Source: Gemmatimonadota bacterium (GTDB taxonomy: Bacteria; Gemmatimonadota; Gemmatimonadetes; Gemmatimonadales; GWC2-71-9). Taken from it: a stretch of DNA of 64,000 bases. Position 1 is the first letter of the stretch; each line of letters begins with the position of its first letter. Positions 32,405 to 56,206 of this stretch are shown here, one piece after another. The position numbers were made by a program, and so were the translations under genes. The notes under the pieces were generated by a model. The model was not told where the DNA came from, did no database searches, and saw only the letters and a list, made by a program, of their open reading frames with translations. The stretch is taken from positions 17,247-81,246 of the forward strand of contig JBDHDE010000035.1 of the NCBI GenBank assembly GCA_039591655.1, given 5' to 3'.

Positions 32405-32475
32405 CTGTCTCCCGTGGATTGCTGCCGGCTCCACTCCACAAGATATCCCAACCCAAACGAGTTCCCAAACGCCGC
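32247..32475. repeat. ~230-bp imperfect direct repeat, copy 1
   Basis: Aligns by eye with 33981-34209, including ~70 bp of non-coding sequence (GTGGATTGCTGCC...CAAGATATCCCAACCCA...GAGTTCCCAAA). Confidence 0.9.
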
Positions 32476-32526
32476 GGGACTGTGCGAAACTGGCTGCTCT
32501 TGCGGAGAATCCTTATCCTATCCGCC

Positions 32527-33837: not shown

Positions 33838-34137
33838 CTACCCGCTCCAGAACTTGAGCAGCGCGATCATCGTGCCGATCGTGCCGATCCAGAAGAGGAA
33901 CATCCAGCGGATCAGACGGGTCTCCAAGCCCGCCAGCTCCTGCCGGAACTCTGCTCGGACTTCCGCAATGCGCTGCTCGAGCTTCGCGTCGAACCGCGCG
34001 AAGTTCACCTCGAACAGCTCCCGAAACTCCGATCGGTAGGTTACGTCCACCTGGTTGAACCAGTCCACGAGCTCGTCGACCACGCGGTGGCCGAACTTGG
34101 CGTAGAACTCTTCTGAGAACTTCGCGGTAACCGGCAT
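33838..34137 (-). CDS. Small coiled-coil protein with C-terminal TM helix (DUF1640-like)
   Basis: Ends ...AKLEQRIAEVRAEFRQELAGLETRLIRWMFLFWIG. Confidence 0.75.
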   Translation of the reverse strand: MPVTAKFSEEFYAKFGHRVVDELVDWFNQVDVTYRSEFRELFEVNFARFDAKLEQRIAEVRAEFRQELAGLETRLIRWMFLFWIGTIGTMIALLKFWSG

Positions 34138-34209
34138 CCGGACTCTCGTGGATTGCTGCCAGCTCCACTCTACAAGATATCCCAACCCAGACGAGTTCCC
34201 AAATGCCGC
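33981..34209. repeat. ~230-bp imperfect direct repeat, copy 2
   Basis: Aligns by eye with 32247-32475. Confidence 0.9.
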
Positions 34210-34306
34210 ACCACGGACCGAAACTGGCCGCCCCTGCCGTCCTTGACGTAGCCCGTGCTCAATGGCGAACATGGTACTTCGGTTCTCCGGAACGACTTCC
34301 CCGAAG

Positions 34307-36515: not shown

Positions 36516-36593
36516 TTTGGCTCCGGAGGCAATGCCGGCACGCTCACCAGCGCCCATGGGCGCTCGTGGGTGTCGTGACAATCGGTGTGACAG
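36516..36593 (-). repeat. tRNA-Arg(CCG)-derived att-like element, copy A (short: core plus right arm)
   Basis: Sequence TTTGGCTCCGGAGGCAATG...CGCTCACCAGCGC...GGGCGCTCGTGGG...GTGACAAT...TGTGACAG. Confidence 0.8.
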
Positions 36594-36792
36594 CTCCAGC
36601 CGACTCCTTCGGCCGCAGCACGGCCAATACCCCCAGTGTGATCGCGATCTGCACCACGAAGTAGGCCACGATGAACATCGCGTAGTCCAACCGGCCGATA
36701 CGCTCGTCGAGGACACCGGCTACGAGAATCGGCTCCTGAAGGACTACATCCAAGGGGCTCGCTAGCGCCGTTTGGCTTTGGAGGCCAGTGCC

Positions 36793-37143
36793 ATGAGCTG
36801 GATCGAGGATCTTCTCGCATCCATCGACGAGATGGATGCGGAGAAGTTCGTTTCGTTCCTGACCGACGATGCGCAGTTCCGCTACGGGAGCAACCCGCCC
36901 ACCGTTGGCAGGGATGCGATCCGGGAATATGTGGGGCAGTTCTTCGGGATGTTCAAGGGACTGCGCCACGAGCTGCTCGGGTCGTGGACCCACCCGGATG
37001 TCGTGCTCGTCCGGGGAGAGGCGACTTACGTCAAGCATGATGGATCAGCGCTCACCCTGCCGTTCTTGAACTGCTTCAAGATGCGCGGTGAGAAGATCCA
37101 CGAGTACCTCATCTACATCGATCCGACGCCGCTGAGTGGCTGA
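36793..37143 (+). CDS. SnoaL/NTF2-like protein
   Basis: Motifs FLTDDAQF, GRDAIREY and KIHEYLIYID. Confidence 0.8.
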   Translation: MSWIEDLLASIDEMDAEKFVSFLTDDAQFRYGSNPPTVGRDAIREYVGQFFGMFKGLRHELLGSWTHPDVVLVRGEATYVKHDGSALTLPFLNCFKMRGEKIHEYLIYIDPTPLSG

Positions 37144-37990
37144 GTCGATGGCCGGAGAGGCGGAGGGTGCCCCGATGCCCGGGGTTGGAGATGAGCGAAG
37201 CCCGTGGGCAGTGGTGGCGATCCTGACGGGCCTCAGTGTCCTGGCGTGTGGCAGCTATGACGGCGAGCGCGTCCGGGATGAGGCCGACGCCTTTGCGCGA
37301 AGCTATCTCGCAGCTGTTGATACCGCGTCGTCGCGCGCCGCGGATTTCTTGGATCGCGAGTTCTTCCCTACCGACCCTCCCTGGGGCCTACTCGGGGCGG
37401 TGAATGCAGAGTTGGGTGAGCTTGGATCGCTCGAACTTGAAGCGGCCACCGGCACCACTGGGCTCAACCGCTCGGGTGAGATGTTCGTCACGTTGGACTA
37501 CCAGGCCATGTATGCCAACGGGCCAAGTGCCGTGAAGGTGACGCTTCGCAGGGCATCCAGCGACTCCCCGTGGTTTGTTCGGGGACACATGGTAAGCTAC
37601 GAATCCATGGCCATCGAGCTCGCCGAGGAGACCGGTCGGTTTCTGGAAGGCTACTTCGCGTCAGTGGCAGGTCGCGACTTCGACACCGCACTGAGCCTCT
37701 ACTCCGAGTCCTTCCTCCGCGAACACCCGGCGGACAAATGGCGCGCGAGCCTGGCGGCAACGCGAGACACGCTGGGGCGTCCCGGTGACCGTACCCTGAT
37801 CGAGCTCGACGTTTGGGGCAGTGTGCTGACCGGGGCGACCATCATCGATCTCGGCTACTCGGTTGAGTACGAGAGGCTTCCGGCCATCGAGAGATTCACA
37901 GTGTTTCGGATATCACGCGATCAGCGGGCCGAAATCCACCACCACGAGATCTCTACCGATCCCGCGGAGGCGGTTCCGGCCAACAGGTAG
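37136..37990 (+). CDS. Hypothetical lipoprotein with two similar small domains
   Basis: LAC lipobox; duplicated pattern ELG...LDY.A.Y and TLG...LGY.V.Y. The start is uncertain. Confidence 0.6.
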   Translation: MAESMAGEAEGAPMPGVGDERSPWAVVAILTGLSVLACGSYDGERVRDEADAFARSYLAAVDTASSRAADFLDREFFPTDPPWGLLGAVNAELGELGSLELEAATGTTGLNRSGEMFVTLDYQAMYANGPSAVKVTLRRASSDSPWFVRGHMVSYESMAIELAEETGRFLEGYFASVAGRDFDTALSLYSESFLREHPADKWRASLAATRDTLGRPGDRTLIELDVWGSVLTGATIIDLGYSVEYERLPAIERFTVFRISRDQRAEIHHHEISTDPAEAVPANR

Positions 37991-38015
37991 TGGCAAGAGT
38001 GTTGGAGATGTGGCT

Positions 38016-39500
38016 ATGAGCAAAACGAAGACGCTCTGGTGTGCGCTGATGCCACTGGCCGTGTTGGGGAACGGGACGCTGGTTGCGACGACCCTGCAAC
38101 AAGACACTCTTGCCGCCCAGGTCGAGCAGCTGCTAGAGAGCGGCGTGGATCCGAATGCGGAGATCCGAAGTGGCACGACGTTGTTGATGTGGGCTGCCTG
38201 GTCGGGCCACCTCGAGGTCGTGGGGCTCCTGCTGGCTCGCGGCGCCGACCCCAATGCGAAGGACCCGACCAGTCTCACTGTTCTGATGGGTGCGGCAGGC
38301 CAGGGGCACGCTGAAGTCGTGCGAATGCTTCTGGACCACGGTGCTGATGTCCATGCCACTGGGCAAGGGGGCATGACTGCGGTACGGCTCGCGGCCGCGA
38401 ATGGCCGGTCCGACGCCATTGACGTGCTGGTGGGCTACGGCGCCGCAACAACGGAGGCCGAGGTCTACCGGGATGTCATGGGACACCAGTTCGTGCTACC
38501 ACACGCGAGGAACGTGGACGCCCGTCCCAACGAGGATGGCGACGTGGTTCTCGGTATCGATCGCGACGGCGGCCTGTTTCTGGACAGCGGTGATGGCGAA
38601 ATGCGGCGAATTCCCAAGGACAGTCTGGACGGTGTGCTGAGCCCGGTGTACGGCGAGCCGGGCAGGGATCGGATCCTGTATTTCGTGACGGATTCGACCG
38701 TCGAGTATGAAGTCATCTGGGAGGTTGTGGAGATCGCAGGCAAAGCCGGGGTCATGGTGCTATCGGCGGTCGCCGAGCAGGAGAGCGAGCCGATCGCGCT
38801 GAACAGGGCTGCGATGGATGTTCAGATTCCGGGGGAAGGGAATGGGCGGTTGTTGGCGCCGCAGGGAGTATCGAGCAACCAGATTGTGCTGCAATTACTC
38901 GAGGACGGGTTGTACGCCCTCAATTCGGAGCCCGTGCTCCTGTCGCAACTCGACGGTCACATCCGCGCGATCTTCGATGCCCGGCCGGCGAAGCTGATGT
39001 TCGTTCAGGTGGCGGGAAACCGTGGATACCAGGATGTGATCACGGCCATGGATATCGCCCGAGGCGCTGGTGTGCAGGTGATCGGCATCGCCCCCCCAGG
39101 CGAGGTGCCGCAAGCGATTCCTCCCGTCGACCTGGGCGAGCGCTTCGACCCACGAGATTACACGGGGGTGGGTGTCGAGAGCGGCGTGATCGGTGACAGC
39201 AGCCGGGTGTTCAAGGATGCCGTTGTAGACGTCCTACCGGAGCTGGTGTCCTGTCCCCCCGTCGAGTATCCCGCCGAGATGCGGCAAGCGGCCGTCGAGG
39301 GAGTAGTCGTTCTCCAGTTCGTGGTGGAGATCGACGGTCACGTGGAATTGGGAATGATCCAAGTCGTTCGGTCGACGCAGGAGGCATTCGAGGCTCCGGC
39401 GAAGAAGATGCTCGCCGGGTGCACGTTCCGGCCTGGAATGGTGCGCCAGACCGCGGTGCGAGTGCTCGTCGAAATGCCTCTCACGTTCACCTTGCAGTAA
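38016..39500 (+). CDS. Ankyrin repeat - ExbD-like x2 - TonB C-terminal fusion protein
   Basis: Ankyrin repeats (GTTLLMWAAWSGHLEVV, GADPNAKD, GADVHA), two ExbD-periplasmic-like segments, and TonB_C (YPAEMRQAAVEGVVVLQFVV...FRPG...VRVLVEMPLTF). Confidence 0.8.
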   Translation: MSKTKTLWCALMPLAVLGNGTLVATTLQQDTLAAQVEQLLESGVDPNAEIRSGTTLLMWAAWSGHLEVVGLLLARGADPNAKDPTSLTVLMGAAGQGHAEVVRMLLDHGADVHATGQGGMTAVRLAAANGRSDAIDVLVGYGAATTEAEVYRDVMGHQFVLPHARNVDARPNEDGDVVLGIDRDGGLFLDSGDGEMRRIPKDSLDGVLSPVYGEPGRDRILYFVTDSTVEYEVIWEVVEIAGKAGVMVLSAVAEQESEPIALNRAAMDVQIPGEGNGRLLAPQGVSSNQIVLQLLEDGLYALNSEPVLLSQLDGHIRAIFDARPAKLMFVQVAGNRGYQDVITAMDIARGAGVQVIGIAPPGEVPQAIPPVDLGERFDPRDYTGVGVESGVIGDSSRVFKDAVVDVLPELVSCPPVEYPAEMRQAAVEGVVVLQFVVEIDGHVELGMIQVVRSTQEAFEAPAKKMLAGCTFRPGMVRQTAVRVLVEMPLTFTLQ

Positions 39501-39630
39501 GCACTCACCATTGTAGGGATCTCATGCTTGGATTGGGAAAGACCCGAGATCGACTGACCGGCGGCGAGCTAGCCGTCGAGCCCGATGCACGGGCTGCAAT
39601 CAGGAGATTTCCTTCGAGCGAGGGCCACCG

Positions 39631-40083
39631 ATGACTACCGAATCAAGCACCCTTTCCGGGGCAGCGCGCGTGATTGCCGGCAGTGTGGCTCTGCTGGGCG
39701 CTCTGGCCATCATTGGCGGGCTCGTGCAGCTCGGCGTCGTGCTACTCAGGACCCTCCGCGATGGCGCCGATCCTCCGACGATGATTTACTTCGGTGCTGG
39801 AGCTGCGGTGAGTCTTCTCGTCGGTGGCTTCTGTATGCACGCGGTGGCGCTGGCGCGCGAGTATCCGTCGGTGTCCTCGTTTCGCCGGCTGTACGGTTCG
39901 TTCGCACTCCTCTTTGGGTTTGCCCTTCGGTTCGGCCTCATCGAACTAGACGAGCGCACCGCTGCGGCGCTATGGCCAGCTCTACCTGACCTTGGTGGAC
40001 TCGTCGGGGGTGTGGTGCTGTACCTGGTCCTGCAGCGCCGACTCATCCCTGCAGGACTCCCGCGCCGTGCGGGCCCGAAGTAG
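39631..40083 (+). CDS. Hypothetical membrane protein
   Basis: About four hydrophobic segments; GAGG RBS. Confidence 0.6.
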   Translation: MTTESSTLSGAARVIAGSVALLGALAIIGGLVQLGVVLLRTLRDGADPPTMIYFGAGAAVSLLVGGFCMHAVALAREYPSVSSFRRLYGSFALLFGFALRFGLIELDERTAAALWPALPDLGGLVGGVVLYLVLQRRLIPAGLPRRAGPK

Positions 40084-40119
40084 GCCATCGCCCAGCACGC
40101 ATCAGGAGCTGACGGGCCC

Positions 40120-40941
40120 ATGAGAACCTGGAAGCCGATCGGATGGCGCGCGATTGTAGTAACGGTTGCCGTTTCAGCCGCTTTCCGCTCCACAGCATAC
40201 ATGCAGACTCCGACCCCCGATCCGCTCGTTGAACGCACCCTGGAGACGATGCAAATCTGGGAAGTACTCGGCGGGATGCACGATCGGTTTGTCGCCGCAC
40301 TCACAGTGCCGGGAACGGCACCGGCGGCGGACTCAACGCGCCGACTTCTGGATCTGGCGGCGCATCACTTCGCCGATAGTGTGCTATATGGGTATGTGGT
40401 CCAGTACTTGATGACAAATCGGGATTCTGCTCTTACCGAGCGGCTTGCTGGATGGCTCTTTTCCGACTGGGCTGAAGCTTTTCGGCGTGAGGCAATGGTG
40501 GTAGACCAATCGGAGTCTCTGAGGGATTTCGTCTTCCGGCTCCGCAGCGATCCGCCATCTCCCCGCCGGCTAGACCTGATCGAACGCTTCACAGAGGCGA
40601 ATCACGCAGACCGCTACTACACGGATCTTGAAGAGGCTGTGCGGTGCGCCGCTCGCCGAGCTGAAGTTGCGGAGTTTGGCATGGAGGCGCGCGTAGATAC
40701 CGTACCGCCGCTCAGCCACGAGGAGGTGGCCGCACAACTTGACGAGGTCTTCACGGTCGCCGCATTGTCCTACCTACAGCGGTTCGAGTCGGTATCCGAT
40801 GACGCGCTTGAGCGCATGGTGCTCGGGTTCGAGTCCGAGTCCGGACAATGGTACGTCCAAACCTGTTCGGCGGCGATCGTCCACGCATTGGAGCGTGCCG
40901 GGAGCGCAATAGCCGGTGAGCTCTTGAGCCCTAATCGCTGA
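40120..40941 (+). CDS. Secreted hypothetical helical protein
   Basis: Signal-like N-terminus; C-terminal FESESGQWY segment reminiscent of DUF2059. Confidence 0.6.
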   Translation: MRTWKPIGWRAIVVTVAVSAAFRSTAYMQTPTPDPLVERTLETMQIWEVLGGMHDRFVAALTVPGTAPAADSTRRLLDLAAHHFADSVLYGYVVQYLMTNRDSALTERLAGWLFSDWAEAFRREAMVVDQSESLRDFVFRLRSDPPSPRRLDLIERFTEANHADRYYTDLEEAVRCAARRAEVAEFGMEARVDTVPPLSHEEVAAQLDEVFTVAALSYLQRFESVSDDALERMVLGFESESGQWYVQTCSAAIVHALERAGSAIAGELLSPNR

Positions 40942-40992
40942 AGGGTGGGGATTGTGCACGTTCAGCAAGGGGGCACTGGGCCCGGAAGAGCG

Positions 40993-41023
40993 GCTTAACC
41001 CGCGCATGCACCTGCGGAGGCGC
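40993..41023 (+). mobile_element. attC-like half site (R''-L'' end)
   Basis: GCTTAACCCGCGCATGCACCTGCGGAGGCGC; 29 of 31 nt match the start of the full site at 42672. Confidence 0.6.
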
Positions 41024-41061
41024 TGACGGCCCGCCCGGCCCCGACCATTGTGGAGGACATC

Positions 41062-41562
41062 ATGAACAGTCTTGCATTTGCTCGACTCGGTCTCGGCCTG
41101 CTCGGGGTATTGGCGGCCGTTCTGGGTGTAGTTGCGTTTCCTGGGCTCGCTGGCACCGCCACGCTCGTGGTGAGAGAGCACGGCATGAGTGTAGGTATTG
41201 TGGCCGTCCTACTCCCTTTCTTGCTCGTTTGGATCGTGTCCTATTATCTCGTCTTCCGCAATCTCACCCTCGCCAGGCTTCTCTCAGCTCCGAACCAGGC
41301 GTCCGACCAGGCCGAGTCCCCGTTGCTGCTGCAGGTTTTGGTGGGCCTTGCTGGCATGCTCATCCTCGCATACTCGCTCCCTGGCGTCACTACGAGCGTG
41401 GGTGTGATCATGACACAGGGTTCGCTGACGCTAGGTCGCGAGGTCTGGACCGTCACCGTTGCGTACATCGCCCAAGCAGGGCTCGGGCTCGCTCTTGTGC
41501 TACGCCCACATATCTTTCTTCAGCTCTGGAGCCGTCGTGACGCTGAGGGCGGCACCGTCTAA
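41062..41562 (+). CDS. Hypothetical membrane protein
   Basis: GGAGG RBS and four TM segments. The stop TAA lies inside GTCTAAC (R''-like). Confidence 0.65.
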   Translation: MNSLAFARLGLGLLGVLAAVLGVVAFPGLAGTATLVVREHGMSVGIVAVLLPFLLVWIVSYYLVFRNLTLARLLSAPNQASDQAESPLLLQVLVGLAGMLILAYSLPGVTTSVGVIMTQGSLTLGREVWTVTVAYIAQAGLGLALVLRPHIFLQLWSRRDAEGGTV

Positions 41563-41778
41563 CGACTTCGGGCCCCGCCCCCCGCACCTCCCAGAACTCC
41601 ACTGCCGATACAAGAGTGCCCATTCGTAGGAGCGGGGTAGCGAGTGTCCCGACCCTCTCACCCTACGTTGCGCCACCGAGTCCCTCGGTTAGATTCGGGG
41701 CTTTGTTTGGCTTGAGTCCCAGTCTGTCGGCCGATCGTACCGAGGGCCCCCTCCCACGGCCTTCCACGTGAGGCTGCG

Positions 41779-41810
41779 GTCGGCCGGTCGCATGCGCAGG
41801 GTCGTTAGGC
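41779..41810 (+). mobile_element. attC-like half site (L'-R' end)
   Basis: ...CGCATGCGCAGGGTCGTTAGGC resembles the end of the 42672-42821 site. Confidence 0.55.
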
Positions 41811-41878
41811 GTCATGCGTTCGGCACGGCCGCCCTGTGGTGCCAGCCACGAGCGCTTCCGTTAACCTAGGAGTTTCCG

Positions 41879-42265
41879 ATGAGTGTGCGAGTTGTCCGCC
41901 TCGGAACCCCGCGGAATCCGGGAGAGGGAACAAGGATCGGAACTGTTCGCCGCCCTCCCCGTGGTGTGCCGAAGGCACTGTTCTCGGCGCAGAACTGGTA
42001 CGACGTCTGGTTCCCGAACCTGGCTCCAAGCGTGGAGACCATGAAGCTCGGGCAAGAGGCCACGTCGCCAGCACAATGGGCGGTGTTCATGAGGAAGTAC
42101 AAGGCCGAAATGGCTGCGCTTGAGGCAAAGCACGACTTGAAACTCCTGGCGGTGCTATCTCACACGACAAACTTCTCTGTGGGTTGCTACTGCGAGCACG
42201 AGAGTCGCTGCCACCGTTCGGTCTTGAAGCAACTTCTCATCGCGAACGGGGCGAAGGTCGAGTAG
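41879..42265 (+). CDS. DUF488 (YeaO-like) family protein
   Basis: Motifs RRPPRGV, DVWFPNLAPS and CYCEHESRCHRSVL. Confidence 0.85.
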   Translation: MSVRVVRLGTPRNPGEGTRIGTVRRPPRGVPKALFSAQNWYDVWFPNLAPSVETMKLGQEATSPAQWAVFMRKYKAEMAALEAKHDLKLLAVLSHTTNFSVGCYCEHESRCHRSVLKQLLIANGAKVE

Positions 42266-42281
42266 TCATGTTTGCGAAACA

Positions 42282-42665
42282 ATGACGACGCTCACCGAGT
42301 CGCAGCTGCGAGATTGGCTCGATGCCTACGGCCGCGCCTGGGAGGGCCGCGACCCTGATGCAGCGGCGGCTCTGTTCACAGAGGACGCGCAGTACTACGA
42401 GACACCGCTCGGTGAGCCAGCGCGGGGGCGCACGGGGGTGCGGACGTACTGGGCAGCCGCCACAGAGAACCAGCGCGACGTCACGTTTACTCATGAGGTC
42501 TTGGCGATCACCGCGAACCGCGGCATTGCTCGCTGGTGGTCCGAGTTCACACGAGTGGCGTCAGGCGCGGCTGTGCGGTTGGATGGTGTCTTCGTCCTCG
42601 AGTTTGGAGAGGATGGCCTCTGTCGTAGCCTACGCGAGTGGTGGCATCGCTCGGAGGGCAACTAG
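42282..42665 (+). CDS. SnoaL/NTF2-like protein
   Basis: Motifs WLDAYGRAWE, LFTEDAQY and CRSLREWW. Confidence 0.85.
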   Translation: MTTLTESQLRDWLDAYGRAWEGRDPDAAAALFTEDAQYYETPLGEPARGRTGVRTYWAAATENQRDVTFTHEVLAITANRGIARWWSEFTRVASGAAVRLDGVFVLEFGEDGLCRSLREWWHRSEGN

Positions 42666-42671
42666 CAAGAC

Positions 42672-42821
42672 GCCTAACCCGCGCATGAACCTGCGGAGGC
42701 GCGATACGTCTCTCAAGAAAGTCGTTGATATGAGCGCCTGGCACCATCCAGGACCAGTCGTTGATCAGACGGCGCGCCAGGCGGAGTGGTCGCCCGCAGG
42801 TGATGCGCAAAGTCGTTAGGT
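42672..42821 (+). mobile_element. Integron attC-like site (complete, 150 bp)
   Basis: R'' GCCTAAC begins 7 bp after a stop codon and R' is GTTAGGT. The inner arms GCGCATGAACCTGCGG and CCGCAGGTGATGCGC are complementary except for one extra base and one mismatch. Confidence 0.75.
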
Positions 42822-42853
42822 GGACAGGTGTAACTCAGGGGAGTGAGTACTGT

Positions 42854-43087
42854 ATGCGTACGCATCTTCTGATCTCAGCGTTCCTCCTCGTGAGCGGATG
42901 CAGCGCGTGCGCCACGGCGACCCCCAAGCAGGACCCGACCCCAGGGGTGGTCTACGTGTGCCACGGCAATAACAACCCGCGCTGGCTGCGGATCTCGGCC
43001 TCTGCGGCCGACGCTCACCGGCGTCACGGCGATCGTGTTTCGGAGGCGCCCCAGCGGGAAAACAGTGCGTGCAGCCAAGAAGGGTGA
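42854..43087 (+). CDS. Small lipoprotein
   Basis: LVSGC lipobox; VYVCH...AHRRHGD motif. Confidence 0.65.
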   Translation: MRTHLLISAFLLVSGCSACATATPKQDPTPGVVYVCHGNNNPRWLRISASAADAHRRHGDRVSEAPQRENSACSQEG

Positions 43088-43123
43088 GGGTTCGACAGCG
43101 GACCTGCTGTCCACCGCGGGCGC

Positions 43124-43337
43124 TGTCACAGTGAGTGTCACAGTGTTGGGAAGCGAACGCCCCACAGCCACTTAAGTGACTGTGGGGCTTTGTGTTACCT
43201 TCCCATGAGCCTTTGGCTCCGGAGGCAATGCCCGGACGCTCACCGGCGCTCGTGGGCGCTCGTTCTGCCCGATTCTCCTGATCTGAACGCTCATAGGCGC
43301 TCATACGCGCTCGTGGGTGTTGTGAGAATGTCTACAA
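43124..43337 (-). repeat. tRNA-Arg(CCG)-derived att-like element, copy B (divergent left arm)
   Basis: Core CCTTTGGCTCCGGAGGCAATG at 43210 with the full CGCTC-repeat arm. The left side has TGTCACA twice (43124, 43136) and hairpin CCCACAGCCAC-TTAA-GTGACTGTGGG. Confidence 0.8.
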
Positions 43338-43418
43338 GCGCGAGCTCTAGCTCGTCGGCTTCCGCTGTGAGTATCGTACTGGGTACGCTTCGTACTTAAT
43401 CGAAGACCAGGAGAGGTC

Positions 43419-44456
43419 ATGAAGATCGCCCAAGTAGCCCCACTCTACGAGAGTGTGCCCCCCAAGTTCTACGGCGGCACGGAGAGGGTGGTCTCCTACC
43501 TCACCGAGGAGTTGGTGCGGCAGGGACACGAGGTGACTCTGTTTGCCAGTGGCGACTCGGTCACCCGGGCCAATCTGGTGCCAGCCTGGCACCGTGCACT
43601 GCGGCTGGACAAGCGCTGCATCGACCACTTTGCCCACCACGTCCTATTGATGGAGAAGGTGTTCCAGGTTGCTTCGGATTTCGACATCATCCACTGGCAC
43701 ATCGACTACTTCCATTTCCCGCTTTCCCGGCGCCATCCCTATCCTCAGCTGACCACCCTTCACGGGCGCCTCGACCTCCCTGACCTGGTGCCCCTGTACA
43801 AGGAGTTCACGGAGATGCCGGTGGTGTCCATCTCCGACGCCCAGCGCACACCGCTGCCCTGGGCCAACTGGCAGGCGACGGTATATCACGGTTACCCCAT
43901 TGATACCTACAGATTCGCCGAATCGCCCGGTGAGTACTTGGCCTTCTTGGGTAGGATCTGTCCGGAGAAGAGGGTGGATACCGCCATCGCTATCGCCAAG
44001 GAGGTGGGCATGCCGCTCAAGATCGCCGCCAAGGTGGACAAGGTGGATGAAGTGTACTTCGCTGACCAGATCAAGCCCCTGCTCGATCATCCCTCGGTGG
44101 ACTATGTGGGGGAGATCGGAGAAGGTGAGAAGAGCGACTTCCTGGGTGGCGCCGCGGCGCTCTTGTTTCCGATCGATTGGCCGGAGCCGTTCGGCCTAGT
44201 GATGATTGAAGCCATGGCGTGCGGCACCCCGGTCATCGCCCGCAACCGGGGGTCGGTTCCGGAGGTGCTGGAGCAAGGGGTGACGGGCTTCATCTGTGAC
44301 GGCGTGGAGGACTCGGTCCTTGCCGTCAAGCGCTTGGACACCCTGAGCCGGAAACGGTGTCGGGAGGTCTTCGAGAGCCGGTTCACCGTCACCCGGATGG
44401 CGGAGGATTACATGAAGCTCTATGAGGAGGCCATCTCTGATCGGAAGCAGCGGTGA
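43419..44456 (+). CDS. Glycosyltransferase family 4
   Basis: Motifs MKIAQVAPLYESVPPKFYGGTERVV and WPEPFGLVMIEAMACGTPV. Confidence 0.92.
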   Translation: MKIAQVAPLYESVPPKFYGGTERVVSYLTEELVRQGHEVTLFASGDSVTRANLVPAWHRALRLDKRCIDHFAHHVLLMEKVFQVASDFDIIHWHIDYFHFPLSRRHPYPQLTTLHGRLDLPDLVPLYKEFTEMPVVSISDAQRTPLPWANWQATVYHGYPIDTYRFAESPGEYLAFLGRICPEKRVDTAIAIAKEVGMPLKIAAKVDKVDEVYFADQIKPLLDHPSVDYVGEIGEGEKSDFLGGAAALLFPIDWPEPFGLVMIEAMACGTPVIARNRGSVPEVLEQGVTGFICDGVEDSVLAVKRLDTLSRKRCREVFESRFTVTRMAEDYMKLYEEAISDRKQR

Positions 44457-44509
44457 CACTCGGATCCCGCCCGCCGGTCGCCTCCCCTCACCAGCCCGCC
44501 ACGGGTATC

Positions 44510-46804
44510 CTATTTCCTGAACACCACCTTCTTTCCCGCGGGAATGTCGCGCATGTGTCCGTAGATCCTGATCGGTAGGCGCTTGCGAGCACTGCGGGCC
44601 AGCAACCGAACCTTGTCGTGCTCGATGGTGATCGCTAGCTCCGCTCCCTGCCAGCGGTATGAGAAGGACAGTTCCTTCCACTCTCTCGGCAAGCGGGGCC
44701 TGATCTGCAGGATACCCTTGCTGGGGTACACTCCTCCGAAGCCGGCGATGGCTGCCTGCCACGCGTTGCCCAAAGAGGCAGCGTGGATGCCCTCCGCGGT
44801 ATTGCCCATGGTGTTCTGCAGATCAATGAAGAGAACATCGCGGAAGAAACTGCTGGCTGCCTCCAGGTCCCCTACGTCAGCCGCTATCATCGCGTGCGTT
44901 CCCACGCTCAAGGAGGACTTGTGCACCGTGCGGGGCTCGTAGAACTGATAGTTGGCCTTCTTCGTGTGGGCGCCGAAGATGCCAGACAACAGCTGCAAGA
45001 GCATCAGTACATCTGCCTGCTTCACCAACTGCGTCTCTCCCACATCCTGCCAGAGGAAATTCTTAGGCAGCTTGGGCAGGCCGTACTCATTGTGGTTGCT
45101 CAGTCGGATCCGTCGCCTCTTGAAGTAGCCGTCGAACTGCTCGATCACCCCATCCTTGCGCACCTTCATGGCTAGGCGGGGCGCGATTCGCTTCCAGCTG
45201 GTGATCTCGCCGCTCTTGAGATCTATGCGCCGGCACAGAGCCGCGAATTCCCGGGGGAACTCCGATTTCATATGGAGAGCCATGCGGCGGGCGACGAGCA
45301 GATTCCACTTGGCCATCATGTTGGTGTAGGCATTGTTGTCTACGTCCTCGTGAAACTCATCGGGTCCGATCACCTTCTTGATCTCATAGGAGTCACTTCG
45401 AGGGTTGTGCTCGACCCGGCTCGCCCAGAAGCGAGCGGTCTTGAACAGCATCTCAAAGCCGCAGGCGAGCATGAAGTCATCGTCGCCGGTGGCCACATAG
45501 TATCGGTGCACGGCATAGGCGATGTCGGCCGTGATGTGGTGCTCCTGCTCATGGGTGTGGATGGGGATGACGGAACCGTTCAGTCCCTTGGCCCAGGAGG
45601 GGGTCTCCTCCTCCCCCGTGCCAGCAGACTCCCAGGGGTACATGGCCCCGCGGTAGCCCCGTGCCGTGGCAATCTGCTCGGCGGCGTTGAGGCGATCATA
45701 CCGATAGAGCAGCATCTCCGCCGCCGCCCACGGGTGGGTGTGGGTATAGAAGGGCAGCAGGAAGATGTCGGAATCCCAAAAGATGTGTCCGCGGTAACCC
45801 TCGCCGCTCAGGGTCTTGGCCCCGATGCTGCCCCGGCTGCCGGGGGCGGGAGCACTGCAGAGGAGGTGGTAGGTGTTGAAGCGCAGGGCCTTCTGCACGT
45901 CGGGGGCGCCTTTGACCGTGATGGCAGCAGGACCCCACAATTTTTGCCAGCCGCGGACGTGATCGCGAGTCAACTGTGGGATGCCGCGACGGACGGCAGC
46001 CTTCAGGTGGGATCTGGCCGATTCACCCAGCCTGGCCGCGCTTAGATCGCCGGAGCTGTGGATCACAAAGACCTTGGCTAGCGATACCGTCTCGCCCTTC
46101 TTGAGACGGATGTGGAAATGGCTGTCCCGTGCCACCCGGCGCTTGCCCCCTTGCTGAATCATCACGGTGGTGGCGAAGGCCACCGAATACCCTCCGTCCA
46201 GACCGGCGATGCGCACGTACTCGGTTCCTCCTTTGTGTGCCACCTCGCGAATCCGCCAGTGCTTCTTCCGCCCCTCTGTCACCGTCCCGGAGTTCCACAC
46301 GGACAGGTCCAGGGCCGCCTCCACAACCAAGTCGGCAGCGCCCTCCGAGGCGGTGAGGTTCACTTGCATCACGCCCAGGTTCCGATCGGCCATACTCAAG
46401 AAGCGCACGGACTCGTAAAGGAACTTCCTCTTTCGCGTGTCGCGATAGGTGGTTTGTCGGAAGAGCAGTCCGTGTTTGAGGTCCAACTCTCGTCGGTGGG
46501 CAGTAAAGTCCATGGCTACAATGCCCAGTTTCTCACCTTTGAGAGCAAACCAGAGACGGAAGGGATTTGGCATGTTCACCAGCTCCGCCACTAGGGAGCC
46601 GGTCCGATCAAAGAACCCGGCGAGGAAGGTCCCAGGCTGGGAATCCTGGGGCAGTTCCTCATAGATACCACGGCTGCCGAGCAGCCCGTTGCCGAGGGTG
46701 AACTGGGCTTCCCTCACCCCTTGCTGGGAGGGATCCCACGACTCTTCGGTGACCACCCATTCCTTGTTCGATGTGTGATAGCGTTCGAAGTGTTTCTGCT
46801 TCAT
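44510..46804 (-). CDS. Glycoside hydrolase family 65 (disaccharide phosphorylase-like)
   Basis: Motifs GNGLLGSRG, GEGYRGHIFWD, YPWES, GPDEFHE, KQADV and HKSSLS. Confidence 0.92.
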   Translation of the reverse strand: MKQKHFERYHTSNKEWVVTEESWDPSQQGVREAQFTLGNGLLGSRGIYEELPQDSQPGTFLAGFFDRTGSLVAELVNMPNPFRLWFALKGEKLGIVAMDFTAHRRELDLKHGLLFRQTTYRDTRKRKFLYESVRFLSMADRNLGVMQVNLTASEGAADLVVEAALDLSVWNSGTVTEGRKKHWRIREVAHKGGTEYVRIAGLDGGYSVAFATTVMIQQGGKRRVARDSHFHIRLKKGETVSLAKVFVIHSSGDLSAARLGESARSHLKAAVRRGIPQLTRDHVRGWQKLWGPAAITVKGAPDVQKALRFNTYHLLCSAPAPGSRGSIGAKTLSGEGYRGHIFWDSDIFLLPFYTHTHPWAAAEMLLYRYDRLNAAEQIATARGYRGAMYPWESAGTGEEETPSWAKGLNGSVIPIHTHEQEHHITADIAYAVHRYYVATGDDDFMLACGFEMLFKTARFWASRVEHNPRSDSYEIKKVIGPDEFHEDVDNNAYTNMMAKWNLLVARRMALHMKSEFPREFAALCRRIDLKSGEITSWKRIAPRLAMKVRKDGVIEQFDGYFKRRRIRLSNHNEYGLPKLPKNFLWQDVGETQLVKQADVLMLLQLLSGIFGAHTKKANYQFYEPRTVHKSSLSVGTHAMIAADVGDLEAASSFFRDVLFIDLQNTMGNTAEGIHAASLGNAWQAAIAGFGGVYPSKGILQIRPRLPREWKELSFSYRWQGAELAITIEHDKVRLLARSARKRLPIRIYGHMRDIPAGKKVVFRK

Positions 46805-46942
46805 CGAATTCCCTTCAGGGTGGTATAGCTGAGCTCTCCCAAGTCACCCATCATCACATCCACCTTAGCGAGGCGCCCCCGTTCTGGGTAGGAGTCGATC
46901 CCCACGCAACACGTGCCGGCACGCTTGACCGCCTGGGAGTCC

Positions 46943-47175
46943 GTGACAATCGTGAAGATGTTGCTGAATCAGGAAACCCCGCCGCGTGTAACTCGCTGCG
47001 GGGTTTTCACTTACACATGCGCCAGACAGGATTCGAACCTGTGACCTTTGGCTCCGGAGGCAATCCCCGCACGCTCACCAGCGCTCGTGGGCGCTCATTC
47101 TGCCCGGTTTTACTGCCTTGAACGCTCGTGGGCTCTCATACACGCTCGTGGGCGTTGTGACAATGGCGGTTACAG
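46943..47175 (-). repeat. tRNA-Arg(CCG)-derived att-like element, copy C (complete)
   Basis: GTGACAAT, a GC hairpin (CCCCGC...GCGGGG), the tRNA 3' half at 47018-47059, CGCTC repeats and TGTGACAAT. Confidence 0.88.
47018..47059 (-). tRNA. 3'-half fragment of tRNA-Arg(CCG), not a complete tRNA (att core)
   Basis: The minus strand reads CTCCGGA GCCAA AGGTC ACAGG TTCGAAT CCTGT CTGGCGC A: anticodon loop, T-arm and acceptor 3' strand. There is no D-arm or 5' acceptor strand. Confidence 0.8.
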
Positions 47176-47234
47176 TCCGTTGAGCTGGGCCGCCGACTCG
47201 CGTTCCCCTTAGCTGGGCTGCATCTTCTTGCGGG

Positions 47235-49460
47235 ATGGAGGATCAAGTTGAGCGCTTGAAAGCGGCCCTCGCCGAGCGGTACGTCATCGAGCGGGAACTC
47301 GGTCGTGGCGGGATGGCGACCGTCTACCTCGCTCGAGACGTGAAGCACGAGCGAGAGGTCGCGGTGAAGGTACTGCGCCCTGAGCTTGCGGCTGCGCTCG
47401 GGCCAGATCGGTTCCTGCAAGAGATCAAGATCGCAGCCAACCTGCACCACCCGCACATTCTGCCACTGTACGACTCGGGCGAAGCGGACGGGTTCCTGTA
47501 CTACGTCATGCCGTTCGTCGACGGCGAGACGCTGGGCGACAAGCTCGACAGCGAGAAGCAGCTCGGGCTCGAAGAAGCGGTGCGGATCACAACCGAGGTG
47601 GCGGACGCGTTGGACTACGCGCATCGCCAGAATGTGATCCATCGGGACATCAAGCCCGAGAACATCTTGTTATCGGGCAACCACGCGGTCGTCGCGGACT
47701 TCGGCATCGCCCGCGCGCTCGATGCGGCCGGGGGCGAGCGGCTCACCGAAACCGGGCTCGCAATTGGCACGCCGGCCTACATGAGCCCGGAGCAAGTCCT
47801 GGGCAGCGGCCGCATGGACGGCCGGGCTGACCTGTACGCGCTCGGCTGCGTGCTGTACGAGATGCTGGCGGGCGAGACGCCCTTTACCGGCCCGACCGCC
47901 CAGGCGATCCTGGCCCGGCAGTCGGTCGACCCGGTGCCACCCCTCCGGACGGTGCGAAGCACGGTGCCGATCGCAATCGAGCAGGCGGTGAACCGGGCGC
48001 TGGCGAAGGTTCCGGCCGATCGGTTCGCGACGGCTGCAGCCTTTGCGGAGGCGCTCACCGCGCCAGCCTCCGTCCACCCAAGACCCTGCTCGGTCGCGGT
48101 TCTCCCTTTCCTCAACCTGAGCGCGGATCCGGAGAACGAGTACTTCGCGGACGGGATCACCGAGGACGTCATCGCCCAGCTCTCAAAGATCCACGATCTC
48201 AAGGTGATCTCACGCACTTCTGTGATGCCGTTCAAGAAGCGGGAGCAGGGCCTGCAGCAGATCGCTGCGACGCTTGGGGTGGCAACGGTGCTTGAGGGAA
48301 GCGTCAGGCGCGCCGGCGATCGGGTGCGCATCATGGCACAGCTCATTGACGCCGGGACCGACCAGCACCTCTGGGCGGAAAGCTACGACCGCCAACTCCG
48401 CGATATCTTTGCGATCCAGAGTGACGTGGCGTTGAACATCGCGACCGCCCTCCGGGCGGAGCTTTCCCCCGACGAGGAGACGCGGATACGCAGTGAACCG
48501 ACCAATGATCTTCAAGCCTATCAGCTCTATCTCCAGGGACGCCACTGCGTCAACCGGTTCACCGAGGAGGGGATGCGTAAGGGCATCGAGTACTTTGAAC
48601 AAGCGATCGAAGAGGACCCAACCTATGCCCTGCCGTACGCCGCCCTTGCCATTACCTATACCGAGATCGGGTTGGGCCAGGGGGCGGGCCTCTTGAGGCC
48701 AGAGGTGGCGTATCGCCATGCGAAGGAGGCAGCGGCGAAGGCTCTCGTGCTAGACGCTGGGCTCGGCGATGCGCACAGTGCAGCGGCATTCCTCCGGTGG
48801 GTTTGCGACTTCGACTGGAACGGCGCCGAAGCAGAGTTCAACCGTGCGCTCGAACTTAGCCCCGGCAGTGCCGATATCTACGACCTCTACGGGCGCATGT
48901 GTTCGGAACTAGAACGGTACGACGAGGCCATCGCCTTGGAGCAGCGTGCTCAAGAGCTAGATCCGGTCGCGCACCGATCGGATGTCGCAACCACACTGAT
49001 CAGGGCTGGACGGTACGATGAGGCCTTGCAGGCGGCATCGCGCGCGGTCGAACTCGACCCCCATTATGCGCGTTCGCGCGGCACTCTTGGGTGGGCGTAC
49101 CTGATGAAGGGCTTGCACGACCAAGGATTGGCCGAAGTAGAGCGCGCTGTCTCCCTCTCACCCGGGGCCACGCTTTGGCTGGCACAACTTGGGCAGGCCT
49201 ACGCAACAGTGGGGAAGGTTGCCCAGGCTCGGGAGGTGCTTCGCCAGCTGGAAGCGCTATCTGAGCAGCGATACGTCTCTCCTTACCACCTGGCCTACGT
49301 CTACACTGGGCTCGGTGAAGTGGACCACGCGATTGATTGTCTCGAACGGGCCTATGAGGAGCGAGCAGCCGTTTCTGGCATCAGGGGCTCGTTCCTGTTC
49401 ACCAGCCTGCGCTCCCACCCAAGATTCGAAGCGTTGCTTAGAAGAATGAATCTGGCATGA
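47235..49460 (+). CDS. Hanks-type Ser/Thr protein kinase with TolB-like and TPR domains
   Basis: Motifs LGRGGMATVY, VAVK, HRDIKPEN, DFG and GTPAYMSPEQ; SVAVLPFLNLS; TPR repeats. Confidence 0.93.
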   Translation: MEDQVERLKAALAERYVIERELGRGGMATVYLARDVKHEREVAVKVLRPELAAALGPDRFLQEIKIAANLHHPHILPLYDSGEADGFLYYVMPFVDGETLGDKLDSEKQLGLEEAVRITTEVADALDYAHRQNVIHRDIKPENILLSGNHAVVADFGIARALDAAGGERLTETGLAIGTPAYMSPEQVLGSGRMDGRADLYALGCVLYEMLAGETPFTGPTAQAILARQSVDPVPPLRTVRSTVPIAIEQAVNRALAKVPADRFATAAAFAEALTAPASVHPRPCSVAVLPFLNLSADPENEYFADGITEDVIAQLSKIHDLKVISRTSVMPFKKREQGLQQIAATLGVATVLEGSVRRAGDRVRIMAQLIDAGTDQHLWAESYDRQLRDIFAIQSDVALNIATALRAELSPDEETRIRSEPTNDLQAYQLYLQGRHCVNRFTEEGMRKGIEYFEQAIEEDPTYALPYAALAITYTEIGLGQGAGLLRPEVAYRHAKEAAAKALVLDAGLGDAHSAAAFLRWVCDFDWNGAEAEFNRALELSPGSADIYDLYGRMCSELERYDEAIALEQRAQELDPVAHRSDVATTLIRAGRYDEALQAASRAVELDPHYARSRGTLGWAYLMKGLHDQGLAEVERAVSLSPGATLWLAQLGQAYATVGKVAQAREVLRQLEALSEQRYVSPYHLAYVYTGLGEVDHAIDCLERAYEERAAVSGIRGSFLFTSLRSHPRFEALLRRMNLA

Positions 49461-49522
49461 GCGCCCGCCCCACGAAGCGTGCAAGATGCGAAGGGGGTCT
49501 TCGAAGCTCGCTGGGATTCTGA

Positions 49523-49768
49523 GTGACAGTTTGAGTTACGGGTCACAAAGCGCTCGAAAGCACGAAGCCCCGCGGCCGTCTAACAGGCTGCGGGGCATTC
49601 ACTTACACATGCGCCAGACAGGATTCGAACCTGTGACCTTTGGCTCCGGAGGCAATGCCCGCGCGCTCACCAGCGCTCGTGGGCGCTCATTCTGCCCGAC
49701 TTTCTTGTCCTGAACGCTCGTGAGCGCTCATACGCGCTCGTGGGCGTTGTGACAATGACTGTGACAAT
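49523..49768 (-). repeat. tRNA-Arg(CCG)-derived att-like element, copy D (complete)
   Basis: Hairpin GCCCCGC...GCGGGGC, the tRNA fragment at 49610-49651, six CGCTC units, and TGTGACA at 49748 and 49760. Confidence 0.88.
49610..49651 (-). tRNA. 3'-half fragment of tRNA-Arg(CCG), not a complete tRNA (att core)
   Basis: Identical to 47018-47059. Confidence 0.8.
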
Positions 49769-49896
49769 CCTGCGAAAGCATAAAACCCGAGTTACTCTAT
49801 CGGAAATGGTGCCGTTGAGCTACTTTCGCCGCGTCTTGGAGCGGGCCCAGCCCCCGTGCGGGTTCGCTTCGCTCAACAGACCCGAGGAGGTCCACA

Positions 49897-51057
49897 ATGA
49901 GAGTGGGGCTCAACCGTGCCGCCGTCGCCTGTTCAGTGGTGGTTGCGCTAGGCTGTGAATCCATCGGAGCCTCTCAACGATCGCGATCAGCACCGACGAC
50001 CCACACCTACTACATCGCGGCGGACGAGGTCACATGGGACTACGCGCCGAGCGGGCTGGACCAGATATCCGGCAAGCCGTTTGACGAAATCGGCAGGATC
50101 TTCATGGAGAGTGGGCCGGATAGGATTGGGCGCGTGTACAGGAAGGCTCTCTACCGCGAGTACACGGACGAGACCTTCACGATGCTCAAGCCCCGACCGC
50201 CTGAGTGGGAGCACTTGGGGTTTCTTGGGCCGTTGCTACGGGCTGAGGTGGGAGACACGATCAAGATCGTTTACAGGAACAACGTGAGCTTCCCCAACTC
50301 GCTGCACCCCCACGGCGTATTCTATGACAAGGACTCAGAGGGCGCCCCATACGTGGACGAGACCGCCGACACGGACAAGGCCGACGATGCGGTGCCGCCG
50401 GGTGGCGAGCACGTCTACGTTTGGCCCGTACCCGAGCGTGCCGGTCCCGCGGAGGGTGATCCCAGCTCCATTCTGTGGATGTATCACTCGCACACCAACG
50501 AGGACAAGGACGTCAACGCAGGGTTGATGGGTCCGATGATCGTCGCAGCTCGTGGCATGATCGGTCCCGATGGGACCCCTGCCGACGTGGACCGCGAGTT
50601 CATCATCTCGTTCCACGAAGTCGATGAGAACGCCAGCTGGTATCTGGAGGACAACATCCAGACGTACGCGGGCAATCCGGCAAGCGTAGACCGGACTCAG
50701 GTCCAGTTCTTCACGCCGTTCGGCCTCAGCAACTTCATGGAGACGATGAACGGTTTCAGCTTTGGGCACCTCGAGGGGTTAACAGTGCGTGTCGGAGAAC
50801 GGGTGCGCTGGTACCTGATGGCCTCCACCAACTTCGAGGTGCACGCACCCCACTGGCACGGCAATACCGTGGTGCTGAACCGTATGCGAACAGACGTGAC
50901 AAGCCTGACGACCATGGGAATGCAGGTAGCCGACATGGTTGCCGACAATCCGGGCAAATGGCTGTTCCACTGTCACGTGAAGGATCACCTGTTGGGAGGG
51001 ATGCAGTCTACATACACCGTGATGCAGCCTGAAGAGTTGGTAGCGATGCGTAACTGA
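49897..51057 (+). CDS. Two-domain multicopper oxidase, lipoprotein
   Basis: Copper motifs SLHPHG, WMYHSH, HAPHWHG and FHCHVKDHLLGGM; ALGC lipobox. Confidence 0.9.
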   Translation: MRVGLNRAAVACSVVVALGCESIGASQRSRSAPTTHTYYIAADEVTWDYAPSGLDQISGKPFDEIGRIFMESGPDRIGRVYRKALYREYTDETFTMLKPRPPEWEHLGFLGPLLRAEVGDTIKIVYRNNVSFPNSLHPHGVFYDKDSEGAPYVDETADTDKADDAVPPGGEHVYVWPVPERAGPAEGDPSSILWMYHSHTNEDKDVNAGLMGPMIVAARGMIGPDGTPADVDREFIISFHEVDENASWYLEDNIQTYAGNPASVDRTQVQFFTPFGLSNFMETMNGFSFGHLEGLTVRVGERVRWYLMASTNFEVHAPHWHGNTVVLNRMRTDVTSLTTMGMQVADMVADNPGKWLFHCHVKDHLLGGMQSTYTVMQPEELVAMRN

Positions 51058-51139
51058 CTAGCCGAGCTGTGTTGCCCATCCGAACCGGCCCGTGAGAATC
51101 CGCAGCCGGAAGTTTTGGAGCGGGCCCAGAGTGGTCAAA

Positions 51140-51350
51140 GGAGTCTGTGACAATCACGAAGATGCAGTAGAAACAGCAAGCCCCGCAGCGCGTAACTCGC
51201 TGCGGGGTTTTGCCTTACACATGCGCCAGACAGGATTCGAACCTGTGACCTTAGCGCTCGTGGGCGCTCATTCTGCCCACTTTTCCTGCCCTGAACGCTC
51301 ATGAGCGCTCATACGCGCTCGTGGGCGTTGTGACAATGTTTGTGACAGTC
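51140..51350 (-). repeat. tRNA-Arg(CCG)-derived att-like element, copy E (31-bp core deletion)
   Basis: The left arm resembles copy C. The tRNA fragment at 51222-51252 joins directly to AGCGCTCGTGGG; TGTGACA occurs twice at the end. Confidence 0.85.
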
Positions 51351-51414
51351 CGCACTGGAGTCGCAGGAGCCTGACACGCCCGGTCCGACGTGTAAGCCCG
51401 TCCGCGCCCCCCAG

Positions 51415-55153: not shown

Positions 55154-56206
55154 TCAAGGGAACGATACGCGCACCGGTGTATAACTAGAACTCGTCGTGC
55201 CGTCGCCCAGTTGGCCGTAACCGTTGTCTCCCCAGCAGTAGGCGCTCCCGCTGCTCGTCACGCCGCAAGTGTGGCCCCACCCCGCGCTCACCGCCTCAAA
55301 GGTGAACCCACCGGAGACCACCACCGGGGTCGTGCGAGAGGTCGTCGTGCCATCGCCGAGCTGGCCGCTAGCGTTGTATCCCCAGCAGTAGGCGCTCCCG
55401 CTGCTCGTCACGCCGCAGGTGTGGTAAAACCACGCGCTCACCGCCTCAAAGGTGAGCCCACCGGGGACCGCCACCGGGGTCGTGCGAGAGATCGTCGTGC
55501 CATCGCCGAGCTCGCCGGAACCGTTGAATCCCCAGCAGTAGGCGCTCCCGCTGCTCGTCACGCCGCAGGTGTGGTTCTCCCCCGCGCTCACCGCGGCGAA
55601 CATCTCGACAGCTAGTGCCGCGTGGCCGGGCACACCGCGAGCCGCCGCCGTGATCACCGTTTCGCCCGGACCTATGGCCGTCGCCAGACCAGCCGTGTCC
55701 ACCGTGGCGACGCTCTGGTTCGAGGAGACCCAAAGAACCTCCACGTCCTCGACGGTCGAACCCAGCACGTCTTTCACCACGGCGCTGAACTGCTGCGTGT
55801 CGCCTATCGCAGCAAGGGTATCCGCTCTTGGAGTGACCTCCACGGTCGCAACTACTTGGCTCACAGCGAGGGAAGCTGTGCCGGAGATTCCAGCCGTTAC
55901 CGCCGTGATCGTCGCCGCCCCGTTCCCGACCGCGGTCACCAGCCCCGTACCATCAACACTGGCGACACCCGTCGCCGAAGATGTCCATGTGAACGTCTGT
56001 CCGTCGATAGTATTGCCGTTCGCGTCCTTTGCCACGGCAGTGCATTGCAGCGTCTGGCCGATCGCTCTGAGCGTGTGCACTGCCGGATTAACCTCCACCT
56101 GCGCCACTGCAGGGGGTTGTGTCGGGCCGCCTTCGCTACACCCAAACAGCAGCGGTCCAAATGGCAACAGCAGCAGACTCGCCCGAAGACAGCGGCGAAT
56201 GCTCAC
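55154..56206 (-). CDS. Lipoprotein with two Big_2 Ig-like domains and three RCC1/BLIP-II repeats
   Basis: LFGC lipobox; WTSS...VASVDGTGLVTAVGNG-type motif twice; HTCGVTSSGSAYCWG three times. Confidence 0.88.
   Translation of the reverse strand: MSIRRCLRASLLLLPFGPLLFGCSEGGPTQPPAVAQVEVNPAVHTLRAIGQTLQCTAVAKDANGNTIDGQTFTWTSSATGVASVDGTGLVTAVGNGAATITAVTAGISGTASLAVSQVVATVEVTPRADTLAAIGDTQQFSAVVKDVLGSTVEDVEVLWVSSNQSVATVDTAGLATAIGPGETVITAAARGVPGHAALAVEMFAAVSAGENHTCGVTSSGSAYCWGFNGSGELGDGTTISRTTPVAVPGGLTFEAVSAWFYHTCGVTSSGSAYCWGYNASGQLGDGTTTSRTTPVVVSGGFTFEAVSAGWGHTCGVTSSGSAYCWGDNGYGQLGDGTTSSSYTPVRVSFP
55194..55594. repeat. 150-bp tandem repeat (about 2.7 units) encoding RCC1 blades
   Basis: CCCAGCAGTAGGCGCTCCCGCTGCTCGTCACGCCGCA starts at 55231, 55381 and 55531. 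Confidence 0.92.

Follow-up and report, generated by a model that had tools for sequence, protein, structure and literature searches.

The genome of a Gemmatimonadota bacterium contains a locus at which one noncoding, attP-like element recurs between blocks of genes, and the question it raises is what these repeats are and how the blocks between them came to be stacked. The stretch analysed here, hereafter the window, comprises 64,000 nucleotides (C35:17247-81246, stopping at the contig end) of the 3.3 Mb, 95%-complete assembly G000, for which an account made from the letters alone (the sequence-only reading) was already at hand.

Five co-oriented junctions divide the locus into blocks

The sequence-only reading had described five copies of one element in the same orientation, and all five are present on the minus strand:

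36516..36593, minus strand: junction A, core at 36518-36530 and a shortened P arm (one 51-nt unit lost), without the tRNA 3' half
43124..43343, minus strand: junction B, arm repeats, hairpin, core at 43214-43226 and a full P arm, without T arm and acceptor
46943..47178, minus strand: junction C (complete), P' arm repeat, terminator-like hairpin, tRNA-Arg(CCG) 3' half at 47018-47061, P arm
49523..49770, minus strand: junction D (complete), P' arm repeats, hairpin, tRNA 3' half at 49610-49653, P arm with GTGAC repeats at +108 and +120
51125..51351, minus strand: junction E, with a P' arm nearly the same as that beside the tRNA on contig C6 and a 31-nt gap that removes the core

A 13-nt core is found at 36518, 43214, 47049 and 49641. 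The tRNA 3' half ascribed to the complete copies is indeed carried by C and D, each of which scores 31 bits against the Rfam tRNA model, just above the cut-off; A, B and E are incomplete, the gap in E possibly being an assembly error. Read along the minus strand, C and D run from P arm through the anticodon loop (CTCCGGA), tRNA 3' half and hairpin to P' arm, and the identity of the junctions to the tRNA ends 2 nt past the loop. Junction A is the most distal and the last recognisable one, and the original chromosomal tRNA 3' half is absent from it. As had also been noted, the window has no integrase and no intact tRNA: no tRNA gene is called in it and neither an integrase nor a large serine recombinase maps to it, the latter being found nowhere in G000. 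A genome-wide blastn search, proposed earlier as a check, revealed no dispersal; it returned a single further copy (C6:2017-2144, beside a tRNA), and all six copies (6/6) share one locus and one strand. Likeness confined to the hairpin occurs on C5, C12 and C23.

The cargo between and beside the junctions is as follows:

36594..43123, plus strand: block A-B, 6.7 kb core to core, a truncated gene end and nine ORFs (two SnoaL, an ankyrin protein, DUF488 and hypotheticals), mosaic with attC-like sites
40992..41021, plus strand: attC-like left half-site (integron cassette remnant), from an attC pattern scan
42672..42822, plus strand: complete attC-like site whose bottom strand folds as DNA at z -4.2, of a family also in arrays on C105, C54 and C130
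43419..46804, both strands: block B-C, a GT4 glycosyltransferase (plus) and a GH65 hydrolase (minus), convergent
47235..49460, plus strand: block C-D, a Ser/Thr kinase with TPR repeats
49897..51057, plus strand: block D-E, a multicopper oxidase, forming a 1.6-kb islet with other neighbours in G010, G006 and L068
51352..64000, continuing on C6 (about 14.9 kb), no single strand: tRNA-proximal block, membrane and lipoprotein-like genes, a TonB-dependent receptor and a large secreted-type protein
52454 and 54202, minus strand: attC-like half-sites in the tRNA-proximal block, from the attC pattern scan

These contents agree with the earlier description except in A-B, which had been taken for a self-contained run of small ORFs; its ankyrin protein has 545 aa, and it holds both a truncated gene and attC-like sites. 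The block opens with a remnant of about 140 bp from a gene that G009 has in full. Its DUF488 gene is also present in G005 and G008, where the flanks examined show neither an evident junction nor an attC. The attC-like sites, which the earlier account had missed, form a family of 19 half-sites by one pattern across several contigs, five of them in the window. Their presence in both A-B and the tRNA-proximal block indicates, on pattern and predicted fold, that the islets carry captured integron cassettes. Att sites bound C-D fully at both ends; B-C, D-E and A-B have one or two damaged ends.

The array lies behind a tRNA-Arg(CCG) gene on the adjoining contig

An intact tRNA-Arg(CCG) had been forecast on the minus strand beyond position 64000, and the gene was found at C6:2114-2179 on that strand, with acceptor and anticodon stems as predicted and with 8 nt of the anticodon arm missing as assembled. 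It is the last gene of a tRNA cluster on C6 and is co-oriented with the array. We place it about 2.1 kb beyond the window because a paralogous gene on C37 contains the terminal 25 nt of C35 and the initial 25 nt of C6 one base apart, and because a single contig of the congener G010 gives the order tRNA cluster, array, SPFH/GntR, icd. Between the end of the window and the tRNA, C6 carries a ceramidase-like gene, an excisionase remnant and a P' arm.

The same tRNA gene is intact in congeners and in a contig whose flank is identical to that of C6 (L173), and the 8-nt gap begins at the same point as the gap in junction E, where two near-identical arms meet. From this comparison we regard the 8-nt gap as a likely assembly error; among the matches listed from Logan contigs, no piece bridges it and nothing bears on the gap in junction E. 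The tRNA itself, together with junction identity that ends just past its loop, supports the earlier proposal that the repeats are attP-like, derive from the tRNA and were left as successive elements integrated at its anticodon loop.

Junction arms keep motif sequence and spacing

GTKAC repeats, which we take to be integrase arm-binding sites, are spaced 12 bp apart and lie at +108/+120 from the core in long P arms and at +57/+69 in short ones; in P' arms they lie at about -100 to -122, and this includes the P' arms ahead of integrases in L173 and L174. Sixteen of 19 long P arms have exactly the same length and three are off by one base. Within the 16, the motifs are 89-97% identical and two spacers 68% and 55%, and overall P-arm identity is 0.85 within genomes (7 pairs) as against 0.86 between genomes (113 pairs). 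Because motifs are kept while spacers vary at fixed length, and because arms are about as similar within genomes as between them, this pattern fits selection for the geometry of protein binding, or a shared pool from which the arms spread recently, rather than slow decay in place. The P arm also carries palindromic motifs. Folded as RNA, the junctions do no better than shuffled sequences (z -1.1 to -1.9).

Cargo changes at the junctions in related genomes

Junctions are present in six of ten congeners, with different cargo; G001, G003, G005 and G008 are without even a 14-nt core match and are hence uninformative. The collected sites comprise 37 matches, namely eight tRNA-proximal sites, 28 junctions and one chance match (L071:3328), which sits within an ORF, has no arms and was set aside. 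Loci duplicating DNA already in the set were counted once, and the unpublished genomes G023, G185, G456 and G501 enter the tallies only. Blocks between consecutive sites measure 0.99 to 8.6 kb and hold unrelated cargo, and there is no integrase among the 35 ORFs scanned in relatives, those nearest the junctions.

Neighbours were expected to change at the junctions, and they do. On one side of a junction, homology among relatives often extends as far as the core, and on the other side it breaks off; G004 and G007 have a common arm and cargo start with different left flanks, as do G006, L067, L059 and G010. The multicopper oxidase block is the first after the tRNA in G010 and the second in G000. 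Its P arm and start are kept in G010 and G006, but the distal neighbours differ, and its P' end stands ahead of the intact tRNA in G010 and ahead of another block in L068 (542 bp, 92%). Independent contigs show the oxidase end joined to a B-type hairpin; these were matched at 90% likeness and so may be from other organisms.

Between G000 and G010, 47 of 165 four-fold sites differ in the oxidase compared with 671 of 1493 in eight shared genes (p=4.5e-5; an acyltransferase, at 0.43, was left out of the comparison set as non-core), and this lower divergence suggests that the oxidase was transferred after the species split. The GH65 gene shows how such values are to be read: it is 89.7% identical in G003 (59/207 four-fold sites differ, against 65/159 in one core gene), yet no junction lies at its 5' end there. 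A gene equally close but free of junctions means that low divergence is no proof of att-mediated transfer and that cargo also moves by other routes. Further out in G010 lie about 32 kb of variable DNA without junctions. No circular junction of any block was present among the matches listed, which are contigs only.

Similar arrays are found at a tRNA-CAT in the single-contig genome G330 (six fragments) and at a tRNA-Leu on C5, so the pattern is recurrent rather than unique.

A candidate integrase occupies the same tRNA outside the genus set

The search for an adjacent tyrosine integrase, also suggested by the sequence-only reading, failed in G000, where C6 retains only the excisionase remnant, and succeeded at the same tRNA in L173. 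The four PF00589 matches of G000 are two genes that we take from their sequence to be XerC/XerD-like, a truncated integron integrase (IntI, on C97) and a fragment beside tRNA-Ile. The excisionase-family ORF on C6 directly adjoins the tRNA-proximal P' arm, and its homologues sit by tyrosine integrases of one family at various tRNAs. L173 (G514:C123) carries an intact tRNA-Arg(CCG) followed by P' arm, integrase, cargo, a presumed replication-type ORF (labelled from motifs, with no family match) and an excisionase. Its flank matches C6 at 106/106 aligned bases apart from the 8-nt gap, and its excisionase is 65% identical to the C6 ORF. Ahead of the conserved N-terminus of the L173-type integrase there is no ATG, GTG or TTG codon. 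The G514 core is only 70-80% identical to G000 but the L173 flank is identical to C6, so this contig probably derives from a close relative of G000. C6, compared in this way, looks like an L173-like element from which everything from integrase to replication gene has been deleted, and the proximal block is thereby indicated to have decayed from an integrase element.

The three closest integrases found (100, 75 and 73% to L173) all follow tRNA-Arg(CCG), and those at 75% and 73% have the same arm repeats as L173. Complete elements of this integrase family at other tRNAs (G371, G029) have junctions of similar layout at their ends; no distal junction occurs in the examined stretches of two G514 elements and the G564 element. 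No element was found that combines an L173-type integrase with the exact array P arm, so the match between arms and integrase rests on target and spacing. Viral contigs yielded neither an arm match nor a relative of the integrase.

The L173-type family occurs in 51 of 250 genomes of the taxonomic family and was not found in G000 or its 10 congeners (0/11 genus genomes, several congeners being 73-84% complete). PF00589 matches in the ten congeners and G011 include none on array contigs, and none of the nine inspected has an array-type junction. Present-day mobilisation in trans, as proposed earlier, is thus not borne out: the matches listed hold no circles, and the helper was found in none of the 11 genus genomes.

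Serial insertion and decay as the preferred explanation

Taken together, we assign a probability of about 0.72 to the reading that the repeats are attachment-site junctions between gene blocks behind tRNA-Arg(CCG), likely produced by repeated tyrosine-integrase insertion at the anticodon loop, with the blocks likely being integrase-less remnants, some of which probably still travelled as units in the presence of a related integrase. The anatomy and position of the junctions, the change of cargo at them, and an integrase that is absent here and present at the same site elsewhere are observed; that recombination took place, that the blocks decayed from autonomous parents and that they moved in trans is what we infer. 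An incoming circle would carry an attP consisting of P arm, 7-bp loop CTCCGGA, replacement tRNA 3' half, terminator-like hairpin and P' arm. Crossover in the loop would rebuild the tRNA and push the older block outward, so that internal joints read P, core, tRNA 3' half, P'. The inserting agents would be transient excisionase-integrase elements, from which deletion would strip the mobility genes and spare the arms, and blocks with intact arms could be excised or reinserted upon the visit of a related integrase. The array is thus probably an accretion of decayed islets resembling CIMEs (described below), some still movable in trans. Several features speak against clean cassettes: A, B and E are damaged, several blocks are mosaic, among them A-B with its attC-like sites, GH65 occurs in G003 with no junction at its 5' end, and the matches listed hold no circles.

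A more ambitious form of this reading strikes us as possible but doubtful. It holds that small one-gene islets with phased tRNA-derived att arms form a genus-wide pool that transient excisionase-integrase elements excise, carry between species and restack, integron-like but without a resident recombinase and nesting true attC cassettes.

Unlikely, in our judgement, is a purely fossil array in which the blocks are decayed autonomous elements that, once without an integrase, never move by themselves, and in which homologous recombination, or transport within larger composites, spread the shared blocks. The excisionase-only remnant on C6, the damage to three junctions, the truncated gene and attC halves in A-B, the cargo genes without junctions in G003, G005 and G008 and the junction-free variable DNA further out in G010 would all sit well with it, but the arms hold motif sequence and spacing across species that differ at about 45% of four-fold sites in shared genes, and the 1.6-kb oxidase block, although integrase-less, recurs with neighbours that differ on either side while homology continues up to the core.

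We give little credence to a dedicated cassette system, in which minimal islets would be maintained as dedicated substrates that a helper integrase routinely captures and reshuffles, in integron-like fashion on tRNA att sites. Single-gene blocks of 1.0-2.6 kb, an arm pool common to several genomes, alternative arm-cargo joins in independent contigs and the analogous arrays at tRNA-CAT (G330) and tRNA-Leu (C5) lend themselves to such a system; it would, however, be without a resident recombinase, the gene-capture step is not seen, blocks reach 8.6 and 14.9 kb and are mosaic, and a parent element accounts for the arms with no new system. Least credible by far is a dispersed tRNA-derived repeat (MITE- or SINE-like) or tRNA-like RNA, as the Rfam scores of C and D and the palindromic motifs of the P arm might suggest, since the copies are confined to one locus and orientation rather than dispersed at random, their arm spacing matches integrase-bearing elements and they fold no better than shuffles; the blastn search largely refutes it. 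No terminal inverted repeats or target duplications are evident at the junction copies.

The locus has three implications. Programs that call an island only where there is an integrase overlook arrays of this kind, and gene gain by this route is therefore probably undercounted. The att anatomy, the candidate helper integrase at the same tRNA and the 1.6-kb oxidase islet make trans mobility of integrase-less remnants, an open point in CIME and additive-island models, directly testable. Finally, the integrase family could become a source of tools for targeting tRNA genes in a phylum where genetic tools are few.

Comparison with known systems

Within our literature coverage, outside which most subscription papers fall, no description of this Gemmatimonadota array was found. 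tRNA fragments left by integration are common (PMC9897764). Islander defines an anticodon-centred attP class by an intact tRNA, displaced co-oriented 3' fragments and crossover at the anticodon loop (PMC4383910), and the array has the same layout, with an intact tRNA (in relatives; gapped by 8 nt as assembled here) and crossover centred on the loop. Islander requires an integrase for each member and lists only four tandems of three or more (PMC4383910); no block here has an integrase gene of its own, so the array would be missed.

Alteromonas additive flexible genomic islands consist of cassettes that vary in number and order at tRNA hotspots, some with a partial tRNA repeat, and show high identity across species (PMC4898812); here, both integrase arms are kept at each joint and a candidate integrase family is identified. 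Prochlorococcus tycheposon islands are visited at the tRNA by transient integrase elements, with newer material proximal, partial tRNAs separating elements and most islands without an element (bioRxiv 10.1101/2020.12.28.424599). Those belong to a different phylum and their remnants have no clear boundaries, whereas the blocks here are sharply bounded.

CIMEs have lost integration and transfer genes, keep attL and attR, and pile up as further elements insert at the target gene, their internal att sites being chimeric, as in those related to ICESt1 (PMC5704250). The array likewise has no integration or transfer genes (only the excisionase remnant on C6), retains att sites and probably grew by tandem accretion. 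It differs in having five junctions, occurrence across the genus, blocks down to 1 kb and arms in register, and in a candidate parent with integrase and excisionase but no conjugation gene among five ORFs scanned.

Integrons, and attC clusters without an integrase, are ordered arrays of exchangeable gene blocks. The present array is ordered and exchangeable too and has real attC-like sites inside its cargo, but its junctions belong with double-strand att sites, which have arms, rather than with folded attC sites: they show no attC half-site pattern and no better folding than shuffles, and the only IntI is the truncated gene on C97 rather than one beside the array. The earlier label "integron-like" was an overstatement: the excisionase remnant by the tRNA suggests that ordinary integrative elements decayed here, in CIME-type accretion, and several blocks are mosaics. 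The array is a well-preserved variant of known tandem tRNA accretion and not a new integron.

Start codon of the candidate integrases

The candidate helper tyrosine integrases carried by L173 and L174, two stretches from other assemblies, have an in-frame stop upstream of their conserved N-terminus (L173:185-260 in the first), and no ATG, GTG or TTG lies ahead of that N-terminus in either. An ACG codon is present there in both, and this may serve as a non-canonical start.

Inserts in the T loop

In 9 of the 28 junctions of relatives, the tRNA 3' half is interrupted within its T loop by an insert, which is approximately 42 nt long and near-identical in most of the junctions that bear it. No T-loop insert was found at the tRNA-proximal sites (0/8) or in the junction copies of the window, and the single copy tested folded no better than its shuffles. 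Different inserts occupy the identical T-loop position in the tRNA-CAT array of another genome, G330.

Stretches with T-loop inserts in junctions
L035, L037, L038, L043, L044, L049, L059

Repeats within the window

Three further sets of repeats were observed in the window:

32242-32503 and 33975-34237, direct repeat of approximately 260 bp, 85-91% identical
49835-49850 and 51115-51130, 15-nt direct repeat on either side of the oxidase gene
55172-55621, three 150-nt repeats encoding RCC1-like domains

The longer direct repeat includes the start of a small membrane ORF on the minus strand, and an acyltransferase gene lies between its two copies. The 15-nt repeat adjoins the point at which the P' arm of the oxidase block departs from its versions in G010 and L068.

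Other arrays in the source assembly

Contig C5 carries three tRNA-Leu(TAG) 5'-half copies (2391-2434, 5397-5441 and 16465-16509), which form a second, mirror-type array in this assembly; a profile search of the assembly returned no PF00589 matches on C5. Two CAT-anticodon tRNA-like 3' fragments lie on the short contig C106 (1266-1290 and 4130-4167). Arrays of attC-like sites were seen on C105, C54, C130, C107, C33 and C5, and an integron integrase is also encoded:

C97:6083-6718, integron integrase, N-terminally truncated

Unusual junction orientations and settings

At L048:1436-1456 and near L060:222, the sequence flanking the core on its left is similar to the tRNA 5' half in reversed orientation, over 8 nt in L048; the near-palindromic anticodon loop may permit inverted crossovers. 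A junction of G007 (L046:12187) lies 300 bp from a tRNA-Ser(GGA) and adjoins core genes, so placed that it may be a secondary site or else the end of an array that has been rearranged, and this setting is unlike that in G000 (the source assembly), G002 and G010.
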